From Chthoniobacteraceae bacterium (GTDB lineage: Bacteria > Verrucomicrobiota > Verrucomicrobiia > Chthoniobacterales > Chthoniobacteraceae): a stretch of DNA of 64,000 nucleotides. The stretch is taken from positions 1-64,000 of the forward strand of contig JANNWY010000278.1 of NCBI GenBank assembly GCA_031409335.1, read 5' to 3'. Below, piece by piece: positions 39,354-56,026 of this stretch; the stretch's first letter is position 1, and each line of letters begins with the position of its first letter. The notes beneath the pieces were generated by a model. It saw nothing but the letters and a program-made list of their open reading frames with translations. It made no database searches and was not told the origin of the DNA. A program made the translations under genes and the position numbers.

Positions 39354-40067
39354 ATGTCTCCCGCCCGCTCCCAATTTGGCGATACGCGCTGGAGCGTCGT
39401 GCTCGCGGCGCAGTCGGGCGACGAGGCGGATGTGCGCGCGGCGCTCGCGGAATTGTGCGGCGCGTATTGGTATCCGCTCTACGCATTCGTGCGGCGGAGC
39501 GGACACGCGCCGGAGGAGGCGGAGGATTTGACGCAGGAATTTTTCGCGCGGCTGCTGGCGAAGGACTGGCTCGCGGGAGTCGATGGCGCGAAGGGACGCT
39601 TCCGCGCGTTCCTGCTCGCGGCGATGAAACATTTCCTCGCGAACGAATGGCGTCGCGCGCAGACGCAAAAGCGCGGCGGCGGCACGATCGCGGTGCCGCT
39701 CGATGCGGAAGAACGCTACGCCTGCGAACCCGTGGACGCTTTCACACCCGAGACGCTGTACGAACGGCGCTGGGCGCTGACGGTGATCGAAAACGTTTTC
39801 GCCGCGCTGCGGGCCGAGATGGAGCAGGCGGGAAAGCGCGAAGTTTTCGAGACACTGAAAGATCTGCTGTCGCCCGATGCGCGACACATTTCCTACGCGG
39901 AAGCCGGCGCGCGGCTCGGGCTGAGCGAGGATGCGGTGAAGATGACAATTTACCGGCTGCGCAAACGCTACCGCGATCTGCTGCGCGCGCACATCGCGGC
40001 GACGGTCGGCACGAGCGGCGAGATCGACGCGGAGATTCGCGATTTGTTCCGCGTTTTCAGCGCATGA
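39354..40067 (+). CDS. ECF sigma factor of the kinase-associated type
   Basis: TRWSVV, YWYPLYAFVRR, AEDLTQEFF, GRFRAFL, QKRGGG, C-terminal HTH. Confidence 0.9.
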   Translation: MSPARSQFGDTRWSVVLAAQSGDEADVRAALAELCGAYWYPLYAFVRRSGHAPEEAEDLTQEFFARLLAKDWLAGVDGAKGRFRAFLLAAMKHFLANEWRRAQTQKRGGGTIAVPLDAEERYACEPVDAFTPETLYERRWALTVIENVFAALRAEMEQAGKREVFETLKDLLSPDARHISYAEAGARLGLSEDAVKMTIYRLRKRYRDLLRAHIAATVGTSGEIDAEIRDLFRVFSA

Positions 40068-40125
40068 AAAATTCTCGTTACCTTTCGCGCGGAACCGTTC
40101 TGGAAGGGGTGAAACCAAATACGCC

Positions 40126-42165
40126 ATGAACGAATCCAAAACTTGTCCACAATGCGGAGCCACCATTCCCGCCGATGCGCCGGAGGGCGTTTGTCCCGCT
40201 TGCGCGCTGGGGCGCGGGCTGGGAGTCACGCAGATGCAGGCGGAGGAGGCGGAGTTTCGGCGGGCGGAATTGGCGACGCTCGGGGCGGCGTTTCCCGGGT
40301 TTGAATTGATCGCACTTCTCGGGCGCGGCGGGATGGGCGAGGTGTACAAGGCGCGTCAGAAAAAGCTGAACCGGCTCGTGGCGATCAAGATTTTGCCGGA
40401 GCCGTTTGGGAAACTGGATGAATTCACCGAGCGTTTCCGCCGCGAGGCGCAGTCGCTGGCGCGCCTGAACCATCCGAACATCGTGACGATCTACGATTAC
40501 GGCGAGGCGAACGGGCTGTGTTATCTCGTGATGGAATTCGTCGATGGCGTGGATTTGCGGCAGACGATCGAGGCGAAAACGCTCACCGCGGAAGAGGCGC
40601 TGCGCATCGTCCCGCAGGTCTGCGACGCGCTCCAATTCGCGCACGATCAGGGCATCGTGCATCGCGACATCAAGCCCGCGAACATTCTCCTCGATAAAAC
40701 AGGTCGCGTGAAAATCGCGGATTTCGGCCTCGCGAAAATCGTCGGGAAAAGTCCAACCGATCTCACGCTCACGGCAATGGGCGACGTGATGGGCACGCCG
40801 GAATACATGGCGCCCGAGCAGCGCCGCGCGTCACAGACGGTCGATCATCGCGCGGATATCTATTCGCTCGGCGTGGTCTTCTACGAAATGCTGACGGGCG
40901 AAGTGCCGATGGGACGCTTCGAGCCGCCGTCGCACAAGGTCACCATCGACATTCGCCTCGACGACGTGGTGCTGCGAACGCTGGAGCGCGAGCCAGGGCG
41001 GCGTTATCAAAAAGTCAGCGAGGTAAAGTCCGGCGTGGAGACCATCACCGCCGCGAGTCGGCTGCGCCCGATGAAAAAGGAACGCCGTTTTCCGCTCGGC
41101 TTCACCGCGCTGTGGACGCTGCTCTCCGCGCTGCTCTGGTTTTTCCTCGGCGAATTCTGGCGCTGGGAAGGGAAAGGCGTCATCGCCGGTGGCTTCGTGC
41201 TCGCCGCATTCATAGGCCTCGCGCTCTACACGGCGCGGCAGCGTTTCCCGATCATCGCGGAACGGTGGCGCGCGGAGAGCTGGCCGTGGCGGGCCTTCCG
41301 CGTCGCGGGCTGCATTACGCAGTCCATCGTGGTCGTCGCGCTCGTCCTCAGCGCAACCCTGAATCTCGCCGAGCGGACCCGCTGGCCACACTCGTATCTA
41401 AAAGGCGAAAAATTCGCGGCCCAATACAAGGGCGAGGAATACAAGCTCCTGCGCGAACTGAAGGCCTACAAAACCGAAATCCCGAAGGCAGAACTGGCCG
41501 GCCAGGAACTCGGTTGGAACGCCGGTATCGCGTTCCTCGGTACGTCCCCGCCCAATCACCGCTATTTCTCGACCTTCAGCATCCTCGCCCAGCTTTTCCT
41601 CGCGCTCATCCTCCTCGCGAATTCCGTAAACGCGCTCGTGGCCACCGATCAGTTCCGGCTGCGCGTCGATCCGCACTGGCGGCGGACCATCTGGCCGATC
41701 GCCGTGCTGAGCTTCGCGCTCTGCGCCGGCTGGTGTGCCAAGCATTTCGTCGTCTTCCTCCGCGACGTCGCGGCGATGGGGGCGACGATGCGCCAGGGGC
41801 GCGCGTCGGTCGCGGTGCCCCTCGCGGACGTGGAGAAAACGCTCACTGCGAAGCTCAAGTCGGAGGGCTTCCGCATCGGCGAGAGTCGGCAGTGGAAGCT
41901 GATGTCCGTGCCGGAAGGCCGCGATCTCGGCGGGGTGCGGATCGCCAATTTTTGGAAACCCTCGCCCTTCGACCGCTGGGCGTGGCACCGCGGCTGGCTC
42001 GTGCCGATTTCGCCGTTGATCTCGGTGCGCTACCTGGCGAGCGAAAAACCGCTCGAGACCCAGGTGGAAATCACCGTCACCCCGCGCCGCAGGCAGGATG
42101 ATCCCGCATCCCAAGCACTCCTCCAGAGTCTCAAAGCCACCGTCGAGTCGGCCACGAAGCAGTGA
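40126..42165 (+). CDS. Membrane Ser/Thr protein kinase with an N-terminal Zn ribbon
   Basis: CPQC...CPAC, GRGGMGEVY, VAIK, HRDIKPAN, DFG, GTPEYMAPE; C-terminal TM segments. Confidence 0.95.
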   Translation: MNESKTCPQCGATIPADAPEGVCPACALGRGLGVTQMQAEEAEFRRAELATLGAAFPGFELIALLGRGGMGEVYKARQKKLNRLVAIKILPEPFGKLDEFTERFRREAQSLARLNHPNIVTIYDYGEANGLCYLVMEFVDGVDLRQTIEAKTLTAEEALRIVPQVCDALQFAHDQGIVHRDIKPANILLDKTGRVKIADFGLAKIVGKSPTDLTLTAMGDVMGTPEYMAPEQRRASQTVDHRADIYSLGVVFYEMLTGEVPMGRFEPPSHKVTIDIRLDDVVLRTLEREPGRRYQKVSEVKSGVETITAASRLRPMKKERRFPLGFTALWTLLSALLWFFLGEFWRWEGKGVIAGGFVLAAFIGLALYTARQRFPIIAERWRAESWPWRAFRVAGCITQSIVVVALVLSATLNLAERTRWPHSYLKGEKFAAQYKGEEYKLLRELKAYKTEIPKAELAGQELGWNAGIAFLGTSPPNHRYFSTFSILAQLFLALILLANSVNALVATDQFRLRVDPHWRRTIWPIAVLSFALCAGWCAKHFVVFLRDVAAMGATMRQGRASVAVPLADVEKTLTAKLKSEGFRIGESRQWKLMSVPEGRDLGGVRIANFWKPSPFDRWAWHRGWLVPISPLISVRYLASEKPLETQVEITVTPRRRQDDPASQALLQSLKATVESATKQ

Positions 42166-46372: not shown

Positions 46373-46678
46373 TCAAAAGTAATAATCGCAATTCTCCTCG
46401 CTCGCCGCCTTGCGCCGGATGCGGAAGACGTGCGCGGGGTTCGACAGCGGATCGAGCCGCACGAAATTTCGCCGGCCCGTCCAGAGATAGTGCGTGTCCG
46501 TGAGAAGATCGTGCGCCTGATACGTCTCGTCCTCGCCGAAACCGAAATCCACCAGCGGCACTGAGACAAACGCATCCTGCCGGTGCCACGCATCAAGGTT
46601 CAACACGACGAGCAGCAGATTGTCGCGCGCGCCCGTGGCTTTTGAGTAGCAGAGCACGAGGTCGTTGTCGGCTTTCAT
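46373..46678 (-). pseudogene. Orphan duplicate of the glgE 3' end (last 99 codons)
   Basis: Manual alignment gives 85 of 99 aa identical to the GlgE C-terminus; direct repeat 46373-46672 vs 49751-50050. Confidence 0.88.
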
Positions 46679-46754: not shown

Positions 46755-46976
46755 CTACGGCTTCGTGATCTCCACCTCGTAAAACTTCCTCGCTTCGGTC
46801 GCGGTGGGATCGGTCACGGTGCGTTCGAGGCCGTTGTCGGTGAAGGTCGCGCCGGGGAGCGTGGCCCACGTTCCGGCGGTCAGGTCGGTCTTGAACTTCA
46901 CCGTGTAAGTGCGGCCGAGGGCGAGCGGGGCGAAGATGAGCTTCCTCTGGCCGGGCGAGCCGGTGCCACTCGTATC
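46755..46976 (-). pseudogene. 5'-truncated remnant: C-terminal domain of a large secreted protein
   Basis: Open frame bounded upstream by a TGA, no ATG: ...GQRKLIFAPLALGRTYTVKFKTDLTAGTWATLPG...TVTDPTATEARKFYEVEITKP*. Confidence 0.6.
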
Positions 46977-47038
46977 TCATTTGATAATTGAACTGTCCCC
47001 TTACCCCTCCTTTCTTTATCCTCATTCTCTTCGCTACG

Positions 47039-48331
47039 ATGAGTGATTCAACGTCTCCACAACGCACGGTTCCCGAAGACAAAGCGATCCTCAGTGCGCT
47101 CAAGCGTGGTGAGAAAGCCGGCGGATCAAACGCCGACCGCGAGAAAGCGAAAGCCCTTGCTGAAAGAGCCGCGGCCGGACTGAGCGATCCGGTTCAGCGC
47201 GCGGCGTTCACCCGGCTCGCTGAATACTTCGCCACACGGACTCGGATGAAGGAAATCGGCCAGCCGCTTGTGCCGCCGCTCGCAGATATTCTCGCACTCG
47301 GTCAGGCCGGCTTCGTGCAGAGCGCTGAGTTTGCGTGGGCAAATGCGGGCGACGCCGTGCTCGATTATCCACTCCCGGAATTGCTCGCTGCCGTGCCCAG
47401 CGCACGGATGCTCGAAGCTGTGGCGCGCAGGCATCGTGATCTCGCCGCACAGGCGCTCGCGCTCGTTTTAGAGCGTCCTGAATTGGCTGAAACTTCCGCC
47501 GCATTCGACTGGGTAGCACAGCACGCGAAGCCGAAGGAACTCTCGAAGCTCGCTCCGCAAATCCTCTCAGGCCACCCGCGCCGTCGGCACCTTCCGGCGC
47601 GCGAGGAAGTGCTGCGTGTTGCATTGCTCCGCGACAAATCCGGCGAACTGCTGCGCGCTTGCCTCGCGATTGCAAAGGGGCACAGCCCTGCCTTCGACCG
47701 ACTTCGCATCGCCGTGAACACAACTCCGAAACTGCTCGTTCAGTTTATCGGCGGCCTACCCAAAACCATCTGCGGCCCGGACGGTGAAATGGCGATGCAA
47801 CTGCTGGAGTCATGGCTTCCGGCGTTTCCGAAAGCAGAACCCGCCACGCGCGAAAATCTCTCCGGCGTGCTCGCCGCGCTCGCCGGGTTGCTGCTCCGGC
47901 AACCGAAACGTAAGGACGTGCAAACGCATCTGCTTGACGCCCTCGCCCGTGCCGCGTTCCCGTGGTTGCTCGCGATGGAAGACGCGCAGGACACGTCTGG
48001 CTTTTGGCTCGTGGCTCGTGCGGACGATTTCACCAAGGCTCGCAAGCCCAGCGGAAACATTTCGCACTACGGTGCCGGCCTGCTCGCCAGCTCGATGGAG
48101 AAGGCAAAGGCCGGCTTAGCGGCGGATGCACTGCTCGAAGCTCTCGCTCTGAACCTCGGCCTGGAACAGGTCGGTGCTCGCGATGAGAGCGTGAGCTTTG
48201 ACCCGAACTTGCACGAAGATACTGTCGGCGGACTGCTCGCGAGTGACCCGGCCACTGTCAACGAACCCGGCTGGCGGCTAGGCGATCAACTCGTCCGTCG
48301 CGCCAAAGTAACCCCCGATAGCCATGCCTGA
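47039..48331 (+). CDS. Helical protein with a C-terminal GrpE-like beta domain
   Basis: LEQVGARDESVSFDPNLHE...EPGWRLGDQLVRRAKV resembles GrpE FDP.LHEA...GY.L..R..R.A.V. Confidence 0.7.
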   Translation: MSDSTSPQRTVPEDKAILSALKRGEKAGGSNADREKAKALAERAAAGLSDPVQRAAFTRLAEYFATRTRMKEIGQPLVPPLADILALGQAGFVQSAEFAWANAGDAVLDYPLPELLAAVPSARMLEAVARRHRDLAAQALALVLERPELAETSAAFDWVAQHAKPKELSKLAPQILSGHPRRRHLPAREEVLRVALLRDKSGELLRACLAIAKGHSPAFDRLRIAVNTTPKLLVQFIGGLPKTICGPDGEMAMQLLESWLPAFPKAEPATRENLSGVLAALAGLLLRQPKRKDVQTHLLDALARAAFPWLLAMEDAQDTSGFWLVARADDFTKARKPSGNISHYGAGLLASSMEKAKAGLAADALLEALALNLGLEQVGARDESVSFDPNLHEDTVGGLLASDPATVNEPGWRLGDQLVRRAKVTPDSHA

Positions 48332-49706
48332 TCTATTCTCCGCCCCTGTGCTCGGCATCGACCTCGGTGCTTCCTTCACGAAAGTCTCCTATCGACCCGG
48401 CTGGACTGGAGGCCAACATTACGACAAGCCGTGCCGCCTCGTGATGATCGAGAACCGGCCACTTGTGCCGTCATTGGTGATTCACAAAAAAGGCGCGTGA
48501 ACATCGTGGCTCTGCGGACAAGCGGCAGCGGGCTACCGATCGCTCAATGGCGATCAGGTCTTCACGAACTGGAAGGCCGATCTCTTTAGCAATGAGCTGA
48601 CGCTGAAAGTCAGCGGTTCGCTCAAGGCAGCGGGAGAGTTTTTCCGTTGGTTGCACGAGAAGATTTCCGCCGCCGGCATTGATGTGGCGGCTTGCCGCGT
48701 GAAAGTGTGTCTGCCGGCCTTTCCCGACATCGAGCGGCCCACCTCGATCCTCGGGCAGGAGATGGAGTTGTCCGGCTGGCAGAATGCCACCGTCAGCCGT
48801 GTGATGGAGCCGCGCGCGAATACCGTCGGCGTCTTCGGAGAAGGGCGTAACATGCTCTTTCGCCCAGCACCGCATGCTGACGTGAATCCACACTACGGAG
48901 TGATGTATCCGCAGGGTTCGCCTCTGCTAAATCATCTGCGTCAGTATGGCCTCTTCGACGGCCCACGCCACGCAACGATCGTGATTGCGGACATCGGTTC
49001 ATTTACTACGGACCTGAGCATCGTGGATTTCGATGCCGGCGCGGACGGCGACTTCATCGCCAACACCGAGCAGACGAGCTACAAAGTCGGCATCATTGCA
49101 GGTTTTGAAGAACCGCTGCTCGATTACTTGAGCGGGCGTCACGGATTCACAGTTGAAGGGCTGACGTTCGAGGAACGCGAGGCGATCAAGCGGGCGTTCG
49201 CGCTCGGGGAATCGTTCGTGCTCACGCTACCGGGAAGTCAAAACATCAAACTCGGCGATGCAGCCGATCAAACGGTCGCACGGCAAATCGCGGCTGAGTT
49301 GGCGAGCCGCGTGTGGGATTCCTACCGCGAGAAAACCGCGCAAAAGCATGTGAAGTATCTCATCCTCACAGGTGGCGGGAGCGTCGCACCGCTCGTCCGC
49401 GATGCGGTTCACGCGCGATTTGCCGACGCAAAGGTTGCATGGGCAGATGTGGATGGAATGGAAACCGAAAACGGTGAGGTTGGGGATCTCCGCCGCTGGC
49501 CCGATACAGGTGAGACGCTCGCACGTCTGGCAACCGCTCTTGGTGCAGCATCCGTTATCCTTGACCTTCCGGTTGGCTCTCCGCCGCACGAGGAAACATC
49601 AATCGGCCCGATCGAGTCGCCTTGGGTTCCATGCGGCTGCCAAGGAGGAAACAAAGAGTGTATGCGCTGTGGCGGACGTGGGATGTATTTGCGCCAAGGG
49701 ACGTGA
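48324..49706 (+). pseudogene. Actin/Hsp70-fold ATPase with a C-terminal Cys cluster, interrupted by an in-frame TGA at 48498-48500
   Basis: ATG 48324 gives MPDLFSAPVLGIDLGASFTK, in frame with ORF 48651..49706 (VMEP, IADIGSFTTD, LTGGGS, CGC...CMRCGGRG). Confidence 0.75.
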
Positions 49707-49750
49707 GGGAAGTTCGCGAAGGCGGGACGCCAGAGTTCCGCCGCATCGCA

Positions 49751-51955
49751 TCAGAAAAAGTAATCGAAATTCTCCTCGCTCCCCGCCTTTCGCCGGATGC
49801 GGAAAACGTGCGCGGGATTGGTCTGCGGATCGAGCCGCACGAAATTGCGGCGGCCCGTCCAAAGGTAGCGCGCGTCGGTCAGGAGATCGTGGACTTGATA
49901 GGTCTCGCTTTCGCCGAGGCCGAAGTCTTCGAGTGGCACGGACACGAACGCATCCTGCGTGTGCCACGCGTCGAGATTCACCACGACGAGCAGGAGATTG
50001 TCGCGCGCGACCGTGGCTTTGGAATAGCAGAGCACGAGATCGTTGTCGGCGTTTTGGAAGCGCAGATTGCGGAGCTGATGCAGCGCGCGGTTTTCGCGGC
50101 GGGCGCGATTCAGGCGCGTCACGACTTCCTTGATGTTGCCCGGCGCGTTCCAGTCGCGCTCTTTCCACTGATACTTTTCCGAGTCGAGATACTCTTCCTT
50201 CGCCAGCTGTTTGTAGTCCCACTCGCAGAGATTTAGGAAATGCCGCACGTCCGCGGCGGGGTCGATGCCCGCCTTCCACAGCCCCGCGTTTTCGCACAGT
50301 TCGAAGCCCGAATAGATGCCGTAAACCGGCGAGAGCGTAGCCGCGAGCACGGCGCGCACGATGAACGCGGGGCGGCCGCCGAATTGCAGGTAGCTCGGGA
50401 GAATGTCGGGCGTGTTTGGGAAAAGATTCGGGCGCATCGTTTCGGCCACTTCGCCCTGCGTCAGTTCGCTGAAATACTCGGTGAGTCCGCGCTTGGTATT
50501 CCGCCAGGTGAAATACGTGTAGCTCTGCGTGAAGCCCGCCTTCGCCAGCGCGTGCATCATTTTCGGCTTGGTAAACGCCTCGCTCAAAAACACCGCATCC
50601 GGCCAGCGCCGCTGCACGCGCGCGATCATGTATTCCCAAAACGTGACCGGCTTCGTGTGCGGATTATCCACGCGGAAAACGCGGACGCCGTGCTCGCACC
50701 AGAATTCGATCACGCTCGCGAGCTCGCGCCACATCGCGCGCCAGTCGGCGTTGTGGAAGTTCATCGGATAGACGTCTTGATATTTCTTCGGCGGATTCTC
50801 GGCGTATTTGATCGTGCCGTCGGGCCGCTTGTAGAACCAGTCGGGGTGCTCGTGGACGTAGGGATGATCGGGTGAGCAATTGATCGCAAAATCCAGCGCG
50901 ACCTCCATCCCGCGCGCGTGGATTTCCTTCACCAGCCAGTCGAAATCCTTGAGCGTGCCCAGCTCCGGCGCGACATCCTTGTGCCCGCCGCCGTTCGGGC
51001 ATTGCTGGTGACGATTCCCGATCGCATAAGGCACGCCGGGCTCATCGGGTTCGCACGTCACCGCGTTGTTGCGGCCTTTGCGCGCGGTGATTCCGACCGG
51101 GTGGATCGGCGGGAAATAAATCACGTCAAAGCCCATCGCCTTCGCATCATCCACGCGCGCGAGGCAGTCGCGAAAAGTGGAGCCCTTGTCGCCGCGGCCT
51201 TCCGCCGAGCGCGGGAAAAATTCATACCAGGCCGCGAAGCATGCAGCCGTGCGATCGACGAGGATGCGCGCGTAGTTTGGCCGGTAAGCCGACTCTTCGA
51301 CGACCGCGACTTTCTTCTTCGTCTTTGCAGCAGCGGCCTTCTTCTTCTGCAGCGGTTCGATGTCGATCGACGCAAACGTCTCCGCTGGATTCAGCGTCCA
51401 CTCCGAAGCCTCATGCCGATCCGCCCACGCCGTCATCAGGGCTTCGAGTTCGTGATCGTGCAGAAGATCGTTCACCTGCACTGGCGTCGCCGCGCGAATC
51501 CTCTCCGCAAACGCATTCAACCGCTCGGTGTCGTGTTTGCGTTTCGCGTGTTTCGCCAATTCCGCCGCCTTCGCCACGAACCCCGCGCCTTCCAGCGTCT
51601 CGCTCTGCAAGTCCTTCAAACCTGCTGCAAACTTCGTCGCAAACTCATGCTGCCACGTCCGAAAAAAATCGCCCCACGCCTCGATCGTGAATTCGTAAGT
51701 CGCGTTCTCATAAACCGAAATCGTCCCGTGCCAGCGATCCATCGTGTTTGGGATCGGCGTCATCGGCGTCTCGTTCCACTTCACTCCGCCCGCCTTCCGC
51801 CATTTCAAAACCGCCGACACGACATCGTGGCCATCCTTGTAAACATCGGCCTCCACGGTCGTATCCTCGCCAATGCAGCGCTTGATCGGATAGCGCGCGT
51901 TATCGACCAGCGGGCTCACGTTTTCAATGACGACGGTCGGTGGTCGGGGAATCAT
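49751..51955 (-). CDS. glgE: Alpha-1,4-glucan:maltose-1-phosphate maltosyltransferase
   Basis: WYEFFPRS, GFDVIYFPPIHP, AENPPKKYQD, FRVDNPHTKP, QSYTYFTWRN, NTPDIL. Confidence 0.96.
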   Translation of the reverse strand: MIPRPPTVVIENVSPLVDNARYPIKRCIGEDTTVEADVYKDGHDVVSAVLKWRKAGGVKWNETPMTPIPNTMDRWHGTISVYENATYEFTIEAWGDFFRTWQHEFATKFAAGLKDLQSETLEGAGFVAKAAELAKHAKRKHDTERLNAFAERIRAATPVQVNDLLHDHELEALMTAWADRHEASEWTLNPAETFASIDIEPLQKKKAAAAKTKKKVAVVEESAYRPNYARILVDRTAACFAAWYEFFPRSAEGRGDKGSTFRDCLARVDDAKAMGFDVIYFPPIHPVGITARKGRNNAVTCEPDEPGVPYAIGNRHQQCPNGGGHKDVAPELGTLKDFDWLVKEIHARGMEVALDFAINCSPDHPYVHEHPDWFYKRPDGTIKYAENPPKKYQDVYPMNFHNADWRAMWRELASVIEFWCEHGVRVFRVDNPHTKPVTFWEYMIARVQRRWPDAVFLSEAFTKPKMMHALAKAGFTQSYTYFTWRNTKRGLTEYFSELTQGEVAETMRPNLFPNTPDILPSYLQFGGRPAFIVRAVLAATLSPVYGIYSGFELCENAGLWKAGIDPAADVRHFLNLCEWDYKQLAKEEYLDSEKYQWKERDWNAPGNIKEVVTRLNRARRENRALHQLRNLRFQNADNDLVLCYSKATVARDNLLLVVVNLDAWHTQDAFVSVPLEDFGLGESETYQVHDLLTDARYLWTGRRNFVRLDPQTNPAHVFRIRRKAGSEENFDYFF

Positions 51956-51971
51956 GCGCGCCCAATCTGAA

Positions 51972-52859
51972 TCACGCCGGCCATTCGCGGCAAGCCTCGC
52001 CCGCCGATCGTCGCGGACGCGACTGCGCCAAACCCGCGATCCACTTTCCTTTGCGCACGACGCGCGTGATTTTGAAACCGACCCGTCGAAATGCTGCGAG
52101 CACTTCCGCCTCCTGCGTGCGGAGGATGCCGGAGAAAACAAGGTGCCCGCCCGGTGCCGTCGCCGCTGCGAGCTTCGGCGCGATTTCGATCAACAGGCCG
52201 CTGAAGATGTTTGCCGCCACGACTTCCCATGTCCGATCCGGCGTCCACTCGCGGACATCGAGCTTCCGCATCGTCGCGCTGCCCATCGCGTTCGCGCGCA
52301 CGTTTTCCTTTGCCGTCCGGACGGCGTGCGGATCGAAATCCGCGCCGAGGCATTTTCGCGCGCCGAGCACGCGGGCGGCGAGGGCGAGAATGCCGCTGCC
52401 GCATCCGAGATCGAGCATCTCCCATTTCCGCCCGGCGAGGTCGTCCGCGACATCCGCAAGCAGCCGCAGGCACGTCGCCGTGGTCGCGTGTTCACCGGTG
52501 CCAAAGGCCATGCCCGCCGGAATCACCAGCACGGGCACGCCGCGCTTCACCGCGGCGCGCTCCCGTTCGCTCGTGATGACCGCCAGTTTCCCGCGCACGA
52601 CGATCGGCGCGCGGGGTTTCGCGAGCGCGGCTGGCAGGATCTTTTTCTGCACCGAAACCGCCCCACCAAACATCTTCCGCAATCTCTCCGCCTCGGGTTT
52701 CTTGAGTTGGAAAATCTCGATGCGCAGCAGCTTCGCATTCGCCGGTTGCGTGATCGCGAGCCGGTCCGCAAAGCCCGTCAGCCGCTCCACCCACGCGTCC
52801 TCCCACTTCGCGCTCGCGAGTTTCCGCCACACGAAAACCACCCGTCCCGCGCCGGTCAT
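51972..52859 (-). CDS. prmA: Ribosomal protein L11 methyltransferase
   Basis: PAGMAFGTGEHATT, LDLGCGSGIL, VAANI, FSGIL. Confidence 0.9.
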   Translation of the reverse strand: MTGAGRVVFVWRKLASAKWEDAWVERLTGFADRLAITQPANAKLLRIEIFQLKKPEAERLRKMFGGAVSVQKKILPAALAKPRAPIVVRGKLAVITSERERAAVKRGVPVLVIPAGMAFGTGEHATTATCLRLLADVADDLAGRKWEMLDLGCGSGILALAARVLGARKCLGADFDPHAVRTAKENVRANAMGSATMRKLDVREWTPDRTWEVVAANIFSGLLIEIAPKLAAATAPGGHLVFSGILRTQEAEVLAAFRRVGFKITRVVRKGKWIAGLAQSRPRRSAGEACREWPA

Positions 52860-55243: not shown

Positions 55244-56026
55244 TTATTTCGCTTCAAGACCGGGTCGGATGTCCGCTTCGCGCAGCGCGCGCCATGTCGC
55301 GGGAAATGCGGCGCTGTGTTCCAAAACCGCTGCCTCGATCGACGCCGAGCCGAGATGTTCCGCGCGATGTTTCGCGATCGTGTCGTCGCCGGGAAGTTCG
55401 TCGTCGGAATCCTCACCGAGCGCGCGATGCCCGATTGCCCAAGCGTCGAAAGCCACGTCCAGCGCGTCATCGAGCGATTTGCCAGTGATGCTTTTTGAGC
55501 CGAGAAATTTCTCCATCAGCTTCGCCGCCCGAGCCGTCCCAGCGATCACGCCGAATTCCTCGAACGCATGTCCAAACGCGCCGCCATTCGTGTGAATGGA
55601 GCCGTCGTAATCGAGCCGCAGGAAAAGATTCGGCGCATCGCCGCGACCGAGTTCCGCGAAAAGCAGCCGCGCCAGGTAAGGCGCGCCATACACCTGCTCG
55701 AACGCGGCTTTCAGCGCCGGACTCAGCGAATAGTTCGCCAGCCGCCGCAGCGAAACATCCAGCGCCGCGCGGGCGAAACCTTCGGTGCCCGTGAGCTCGA
55801 TCGCCGCCATGCGCAGCCGCTCGATGTCGCCCGGATGCCCGATCGCACCCATCCCGATGCGATCGTAAATCTCGAACAACTTCTGCCGCTCACGACTCAG
55901 CGTGAGCAGCACGATGCCATCCCGATAAGTCAGCGCCACAATCGGGCTCCCGCCCGAAATCTGCGTCTCGATGTACTCGCGACGATTCGCGATGGCTTCG
56001 ACCCAGCGATACGGTTCTTCAATCAT
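55244..56026 (-). CDS. prcA: 20S proteasome alpha subunit
   Basis: EPYRW..AI..RREYI, GSPIV, KLFEIYDRIGMGAIG, LDYDG; same operon as the beta subunit. Confidence 0.85.
   Translation of the reverse strand: MIEEPYRWVEAIANRREYIETQISGGSPIVALTYRDGIVLLTLSRERQKLFEIYDRIGMGAIGHPGDIERLRMAAIELTGTEGFARAALDVSLRRLANYSLSPALKAAFEQVYGAPYLARLLFAELGRGDAPNLFLRLDYDGSIHTNGGAFGHAFEEFGVIAGTARAAKLMEKFLGSKSITGKSLDDALDVAFDAWAIGHRALGEDSDDELPGDDTIAKHRAEHLGSASIEAAVLEHSAAFPATWRALREADIRPGLEAK

Follow-up and report, generated by a model that had tools for sequence, protein, structure and literature searches.

A decayed gene pair at glgE points to a putative, uncatalogued sister family of the candidate system PDC-M61

Results

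A two-gene unit flanked by copies of the glgE 3' end

We analysed a stretch of 64,000 nucleotides from a Chthoniobacteraceae genome (contig JANNWY010000278.1, hereafter the window), in which two overlapping genes lie between an intact glgE and a displaced copy of its 3' end (Table 1). Gene 1 runs from an ATG at 47039 to a TGA at 48329-48331 and its product of 430 aa ends in FDPNLHE...GWRLGDQLVRRAKV, while the ATG of gene 2 (48324) falls within the final 8 nt of gene 1, an overlap of 8 nt. With an in-frame TGA read as X, gene 2 continues for 460 codons to 49706 and contains this single internal stop. The frames 47039-48331 and 48324-49706 confirm the overlapping two-gene module proposed in an earlier, sequence-only reading of this DNA, and the actin-fold motifs which that reading listed (GIDLGASFTK, EP, DIGSFTTD and LTGGGS) are all present in gene 2 when it is read through the TGA.

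Table 1. Positions of the gene pair, its parts and its boundaries in the window.
Feature	Positions	Strand	Description
Displaced copy of glgE 3' end, left boundary repeat	46373..46672	-	GLGE_C, E 1.8e-28
Start-less remnant of a C-terminal module	46755..46976	-	blastn 69-72% to C302, C21, C196
Gene 1	47039..48331	+	430-aa partner, predicted alpha-solenoid and C-terminal GrpE-like head; open frame intact
HEAT/ARM-like alpha-solenoid (gene 1)	47069..47983	+	residues about 11-315, predicted to replace the GrpE coiled coil
GrpE-like two-helix and beta-head (gene 1)	48044..48328	+	residues about 336-430
Gene 2	48324..49706	+	stand-alone Hsp70/actin-fold nucleotide-binding domain (predicted) with Cys tail; putative pseudogene in the window genome
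Premature TGA (gene 2)	48498..48500	+	codon 59; Arg in close homologues
Four-cysteine tail CxC-x6-CxxCxGxG (gene 2)	49632..49682	+	predicted single zinc site
3' end of intact glgE, right boundary repeat	49751..50050	-	ORF 49751-52141

The boundary repeat is direct, 300 nt long and 84% identical between its two copies. Third codon positions account for 33 of the 49 differences, so both copies appear to have once been under selection as coding glgE. The module to which the remnant at 46755..46976 belongs recurs at three other places in the genome, and we read the remnant as decayed cargo of the insertion. The earlier reading had called the pair island-borne, and the repeat that flanks it speaks for this part of the claim; against it, the 3.1-kb interval between the repeats holds no integrase and resembles its flanks in GC, with a GC3 of 0.66-0.67 versus 0.78 for glgE and deoC. 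A comparable arrangement is described for prophage e14, where the intact icd gene and the C-terminal fragment icdC flank the inserted DNA (PMC13626634). The window insertion is likewise bordered by a complete gene on one side and a C-terminal piece of that gene on the other but, unlike e14, is left with only 3.1 kb and no integrase, so that the mode of arrival of the pair can only be inferred.

The DNA match of the window to its closest loci (L012) spans only the two genes (47032-49707), which suggests that the pair moves as a unit. Downstream of glgE, five related genomes carry other genes, none matching the pair, and the matches listed for 60 relatives reach the pair in G425 alone, as a truncated gene 2 at a different site. 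In this copy (L137:9946-10815, G425:C8), gene 2 is reduced to its C-terminal half, which is fused in frame to an unrelated N-terminal part, and a small toxin-antitoxin-like pair lies next to it. The closest named relatives of the window genome are Chthoniobacter bins. The neighbours of the pair within the window are housekeeping genes, and the PADLOC matches in the window, to 4 of its 56 ORFs, come from generic domains of kinase or methyltransferase type or, in one case, are weak. A match to PD-T4-6 through the kinase domain only is found at 39354-42165 (+), where an ECF-sigma-like gene precedes a membrane Ser/Thr kinase. Elsewhere, the window of this Verrucomicrobiota genome holds a proteasome-subunit-like gene (55244-56026, minus strand; Pfam Proteasome, E 1.8e-6), which has unannotated neighbours upstream.

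Gene 2 is interrupted in the window genome

Codon 59 of gene 2 reads CGG and CGC (Arg) in the two nearest loci, and the position is Arg in most homologues. The TGA found there in the window, which the sequence-only reading had treated as a mere detail of translation, therefore marks this copy as a putative pseudogene. Its inactivation appears recent: of the 121 differences from L012, 81 still fall at third codon positions. The stop is not peculiar to this assembly, as contigs of two public runs span 48498-48500 with zero letter differences; the two do not count as independent, because both runs may be the source of the window DNA. Owing to the stop in the ATPase gene, the pair in the window genome is likely a dead copy, a decayed example that serves mainly as a pointer to its family.

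Gene 2 belongs to a family with a predicted Hsp70-type ATPase domain

Searches of gene 2 against Pfam, NCBIfam and PADLOC returned nothing above cut-off, the Pfam HSP70 score being 13 bits, under the curated cut-off of 20.6. A family profile built from 34 sequences and searched against 1.84 billion representatives retrieved 235 clusters (50% identity) at E<=1e-30. Its best 60 matches among PDB sequences are all Hsp70s (top E 8.5e-8), and a Foldseek search with the AlphaFold model of P0003 (an intact homologue, 93%; pLDDT 89) gave, among the matches listed, only nucleotide-binding domains of Hsp70/DnaK (best E 1.2e-14, about 16% identity). MreB, ParM, FtsA and actin chains are absent both from the Foldseek matches listed and from the best 60 PDB profile matches. 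As modelled, the family has an Hsp70-type nucleotide-binding fold.

Across 101 family members the catalytic set is conserved almost without exception: D13 (100/101), K20 (101/101), K84 (100/101), E162, D223, D230, G350 and G351 (each 101/101), and T228 and R401 (100 or 101 of 101). They include the catalytic Asp, Lys and Glu and residues of the adenosine site, with the roles that these have in Hsp70s in general, and their correspondence to K71 and to the DxGGG motif is taken from the alignment with Hsp70s. Since the catalytic residues are kept in 100 or 101 of 101 members, the family members are predicted to be active ATPases. Beyond its ATPase domain, gene 2 has about 45 residues, which include the Cys knuckle; both the sequence and the P0003 model bear out the earlier observation that an Hsp70 substrate-binding domain is absent.

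The phosphate-1 motif of the family is DxGxxxTK with an invariant lysine, a trait of actin and ParM, unlike DnaK. Taken singly, 43 family sequences lean in Pfam towards MreB-like_C (17), Alp7A (11), MreB (9) and HSP70 (6), all under cut-off; the matches to MreB, ParM, Alp and FtsA families are weak (best E 2.7e-4). Run on the window's own genome, the family profile scores Hsp70s at 14-27 bits versus 13 for MreB, 11 for PilM and 7 for FtsA. A FastTree phylogeny (56 sequences) showed three distinct groups, namely the family, M61B and the Hsp70s, with weak deep nodes. A kinship of gene 2 with Hsp70s, as opposed to ordinary ParM, MreB or FtsA families, which would have told against the first interpretation, is favoured by the Foldseek and PDB profile matches listed, all of them Hsp70s, but this placement is not firm given the mixed Pfam leanings, the invariant lysine and the weak deep nodes of the tree.

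A single Cys knuckle at the C-terminus

The pattern CxC-x5/6-CxxCxGxG occurs in 41 of the 129 representatives with a placeable domain end, and each of 150 representatives has either none or one such unit, never more. The zinc finger of DnaJ consists of four CxxCxGxG repeats within a J-domain protein, and no DnaJ family appears among the Pfam matches of gene 2 or of the family sequences. A DnaJ zinc finger was therefore rejected for a tail that has a single unit and is missing in most of the family. The CxxCxGxG unit noted at the outset is present, but its DnaJ-like reading does not stand, and the tail is best read as one predicted zinc knuckle.

Twelve tail-bearing representatives extend further by 90-490 aa, one of them with GYF_2. 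A sub-branch comprising L004:7956-12913, L062:6968-12048, P0066, P0071, P0079 and others carries a conserved domain of about 330 aa behind the Cys tail, for which no match was found in Pfam, PADLOC or the PDB. In both L004 and L062, the SNF2 helicase gene that follows overlaps the stop of the ATPase gene.

Gene 1 is modelled as a solenoid with a GrpE-like head

GrpE is a cofactor of Hsp70. The AF2 model of gene 1 (pLDDT 82) indicates a HEAT-like solenoid capped by a GrpE-type head, with the helix pair, the beta-sheet head and the motifs FDPxxH and GY/WxL..R..V of GrpE; its N-terminus is folded into the short helices of the solenoid, and the long dimerising coiled coil of GrpE is absent. When the whole genome was searched with a profile of the tail, the next match after gene 1 was the genome's GrpE (E 0.029). 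Both the tail profile and the structure thus support the GrpE-like C-terminus claimed in the sequence-only reading, with a structural Z of 6.3 that is middling and equalled by generic helical matches. Gene 1 has no match in Pfam, and 1 of 24 partners matches Pfam GrpE, below threshold. The partner proteins diverge fast, with a mean column identity of 31%.

The two genes co-occur in a rare and patchy family

To score pairing, 106 fetched loci and the window were reduced to 90 distinct ATPase genes at 95% identity, leaving out L042 (spurious) and L033 and L039 (matches lacking the N-terminal motif); three of the 90 had too little upstream DNA, giving n=87. A GrpE-tailed gene lies directly upstream of 75 of these 87 genes, 19 of the paired genes being in the training set of the tail profile and 56 outside it. 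Conversely, all 93 matches of the tail profile (E<0.01, 9040 ORFs) adjoin an ATPase gene. The expected co-occurrence of the two genes in homologues therefore held.

The 12 unpaired ATPase genes are ten from Gemmatimonadota together with L096 and L104. Partners fall into a long class (about 410-480 aa) and a short class (about 230-320 aa), and the long-partner genes form a single clade with the Gemmatimonadota solos (FastTree support 1.0). As the ten solos are nested in this clade, they have probably lost their partner, which would make the partner dispensable in Gemmatimonadota. The Gemmatimonadota loci with an ATPase alone and no GrpE-tailed partner, mostly from Longimicrobium, occupy varied sites (L064, L066-L071, L075, L081, L086, L099). 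In L096 (1946-8233), the gene immediately ahead of the partner-less ATPase gene encodes a lipase-SLOG-CHAT protein of 1678 aa, which might serve as sensor or effector instead.

Going by record titles, hosts belong to the Verrucomicrobiota, Planctomycetota, Myxococcota and Gemmatimonadota (four phyla, a few bin labels being doubtful). A sample of 400 other genomes from the window's phylum yielded no member of the family (four candidates scored per genome), nor did plasmids and viral contigs give any match to it; its distribution is rare and patchy. Split ATPase frames occur in L037, L038, L040, L056 and L058. In Verrucomicrobiales, the short-partner pair is present as a tandem duplicate (L008:5141-9263 and L009:5112-9206), with several more copies per genome.

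Relatives of the window branch often neighbour defence genes

In the long-partner/Cys-tail group, to which the window belongs, a PADLOC match lies near the pair in 22 of 31 loci, a descriptive count that covers one to six chosen neighbours per locus, includes related loci that are not independent and contains some matches to generic helicases. This supports the defence-island context that had been expected for homologues. The pair sits between pglX and pglZ of BREX in L017, L023 and L024, and in L021 it precedes pglZ-brxL; it lies near type IIG or II RM genes (L015, L048, L053, L029, L056), near DrmD-like and NERD helicases (L002, L062, L033, L026, L034) and near GmrSD (L039), AbiEii (L019), PDC-S01 (L061), SspC (L045), DndB (L018) or ZacB/C (L004). 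The other 9 of the 31 loci have no clear PADLOC match, two of them standing beside conjugation genes. In the short-partner group, clear defence neighbours were found in only 3 of 20 loci (L088, L105, L106), the remaining 17 having none. In the closest kin, L001 (3016-9383) and L012 (3-3860), the pair ends an operon after a UvrD-like helicase. In L001 this helicase is itself preceded by an Hsp70-TPR gene (about 800 aa), so that one unit holds two Hsp70-fold genes and one GrpE head.

Comparison with known systems

The window proteins match no PADLOC model, including M61A and M61B (none at E<=1), and to this extent the earlier statement that the pair is no named system stands. However, the candidate PDC-M61 is a distant relative with the same plan: in a true M61 pair (L152; 5e-125 to M61B, 4e-48 to M61A), a helical gene A of about 490 aa with a GrpE-like end precedes a stand-alone Hsp70/actin-fold ATPase, and the two ATPases have the motifs DxGxAxxK and DxGAxTTD in common. 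A profile-profile comparison of the family with M61B gave a probability of 98.7% (E 1.8e-16, 383 columns, 17% identity), and M61B is weakly matched by 46 of 101 family ATPases (best 7e-8). For the partners, the alignment with M61A is confined to the last 68 residues (E 0.02), and M61A is weakly matched by 3 of 43 (best 1.2e-3). Unlike the window family, M61B is extended at its N-terminus by about 100 aa (the alignment starts at residue 6 in the family and at 104 in M61B), lacks the Cys tail (0/120) and falls into a separate clade (FastTree). Given a two-gene plan common to both and an identity of about 17%, sequence comparison places the pair in a distinct, uncatalogued sister family of this catalogued candidate; it is not a new principle.

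The PDC set (145) comprises candidates embedded in BREX, DISARM or RM systems, and its published description does not mention M61 by name in the main text (Payne et al., 10.1101/2024.01.29.577857). The relatives L017, L023 and L024, embedded in BREX, resemble this definition, whereas the window copy does not. A study of Pseudomonas reports that PDC-M61 correlates negatively with the number of prophages (10.1101/2024.04.30.591980).

With DnaK-GrpE (1DKG, 4ANI, 9BLS) the pair would share the nucleotide-binding fold, the catalytic residues and the helix pair and beta-head of GrpE; unlike DnaK-GrpE, it has no substrate-binding domain or J-domain, and an alpha-solenoid is predicted in place of the coiled coil. 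Separate DnaK and GrpE proteins are encoded elsewhere in the genome. HSP70, GrpE and a form of HSP70 without its peptide-binding domain are described in predicted GAP1-N2 conflict neighbourhoods of actinobacteria and firmicutes, which are centred on a GTPase and include FNIII/DnaJ or TPR proteins (Kaur et al. 2020, PMC7159879). In contrast, the window interval has no such GTPase or FNIII protein, a single dynamin-like gene (L056) was seen among the scanned neighbours, and a solenoid-fused GrpE does not figure in that description of GAP1-N2 (PMC7159879). CnuD of CoCoNuT systems combines an Hsp70-like domain with HEAT-like repeats in restriction-type defence loci; as described there, it keeps NBD and SBD, has degenerate Walker-like motifs and accompanies McrB GTPases, with no mention of GrpE in the account of CnuD (PMC11090510). 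The window family differs in its intact catalytic set, and no McrB was seen. HSP70-like domains are also mentioned as switches in a ParA survey (10.64898/2026.10.19.760177). Literature searches returned no account of the window gene pair.

Discussion

That the two proteins act together is very probable, and a defence role of the window branch seems reasonably probable. Because intact relatives often lie among anti-phage genes, we tentatively favour, at close to even confidence, a nucleotide-controlled switch in anti-phage defence made of the ATPase and its GrpE-headed partner. By analogy with DnaK-GrpE, the GrpE head would dock across the ATPase cleft and set its ADP/ATP state. More speculatively, the HEAT-like solenoid, standing where GrpE has its coiled coil, might be a sensor for an invader protein, whose binding might flip the ATPase into its active state. 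The ATPase would then deliver the response, either by its zinc knuckle or by the C-terminal extension that varies within the family, working by itself or together with helicases and nucleases encoded nearby; the pair itself has neither a nuclease domain nor any other known effector domain. We hold the exchange-factor switch in this exact form to be an equally tentative proposal.

An accessory chaperone or remodeller, which would assemble, activate or recycle a neighbouring defence protein (helicase, BREX, RM) or a full Hsp70, is suggested by the operons of the closest kin, with their UvrD-like helicase (L001, L012) and, in L001, Hsp70-TPR protein, by the SNF2 helicase gene that overlaps the stop in L004 and L062, and by the HSP70, GrpE and peptide-binding-less HSP70 of GAP1-N2 neighbourhoods (PMC7159879). 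We consider this unlikely, however: the neighbours change among loci (BREX, RM, Ssp, Dnd, ICE genes or none), so that no fixed client is evident, and the window matches L012 in DNA over the two genes alone (47032-49707), so that the pair appears to move as a unit. The missing substrate-binding domain also argues against a chaperone, but would suit a filament-forming ATPase of the ParM/Alp/MreB kind, with gene 1 as its anchor or depolymerising exchange factor and a role in defence, segregation or scaffolding. The invariant phosphate-1 lysine (DxGxxxTK) and the weak Pfam matches to MreB-like_C, Alp7A_like_C, MreB_Mbl and ParM point the same way, whereas MreB, ParM, FtsA and actin are absent from the Foldseek matches listed and the best 60 profile matches, the family profile scores Hsp70s at or above MreB, PilM and FtsA, plasmids and viral contigs gave no match, and GrpE is a cofactor of Hsp70; such a polymer is thus quite unlikely.

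The broken ATPase gene beside an open partner frame in the window, the split ATPase frames of five loci, the truncated copy in G425 and the tight translational overlap of the genes could all be accounted for by a toxin-antitoxin-like addiction cassette, in which a costly ATPase is neutralised by its partner and the two travel as passengers in defence islands. Yet at least 10 Gemmatimonadota loci have intact partner-less ATPase genes, the split frames come from metagenome contigs and may be sequencing errors, and no toxin domain was detected, which leaves this explanation very improbable. We give just as little credence to a housekeeping or stress-response regulator with no role in conflict, found near defence genes only as the place where mobile DNA lands. 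The short-partner branch, mostly among housekeeping genes (17 of 20) and sometimes in several copies per genome, would fit it; three insertions inside BREX operons, the very patchy distribution and the fast divergence of the partner would not.

Returning to the nucleotide-controlled defence switch, its generalisation appears doubtful: a class of immune switch derived from the Hsp70 cycle, in which a HEAT-like sensor with a GrpE head, on meeting a phage protein, arms a substrate-less ATPase that acts through a zinc knuckle, the present family and PDC-M61 being two old branches of it. Among the NTPase switches of bacterial immunity, P-loop proteins (STAND, ABC, GTPases) predominate. If the proposal is right, an Hsp70-type ATPase with its own exchange factor would be a different kind of immune switch, regulated on the exchange factor, and the window branch of the class would be invisible to current defence catalogues. 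A sizeable family (235 clusters) escapes the cut-offs of PADLOC, NCBIfam and Pfam, and intact natural pairs make both it and PDC-M61 directly testable. Besides its main dnaK and grpE, the window genome has a second set at G000:C12:65544-67590, where a divergent GrpE-like gene immediately precedes an Hsp70 gene.
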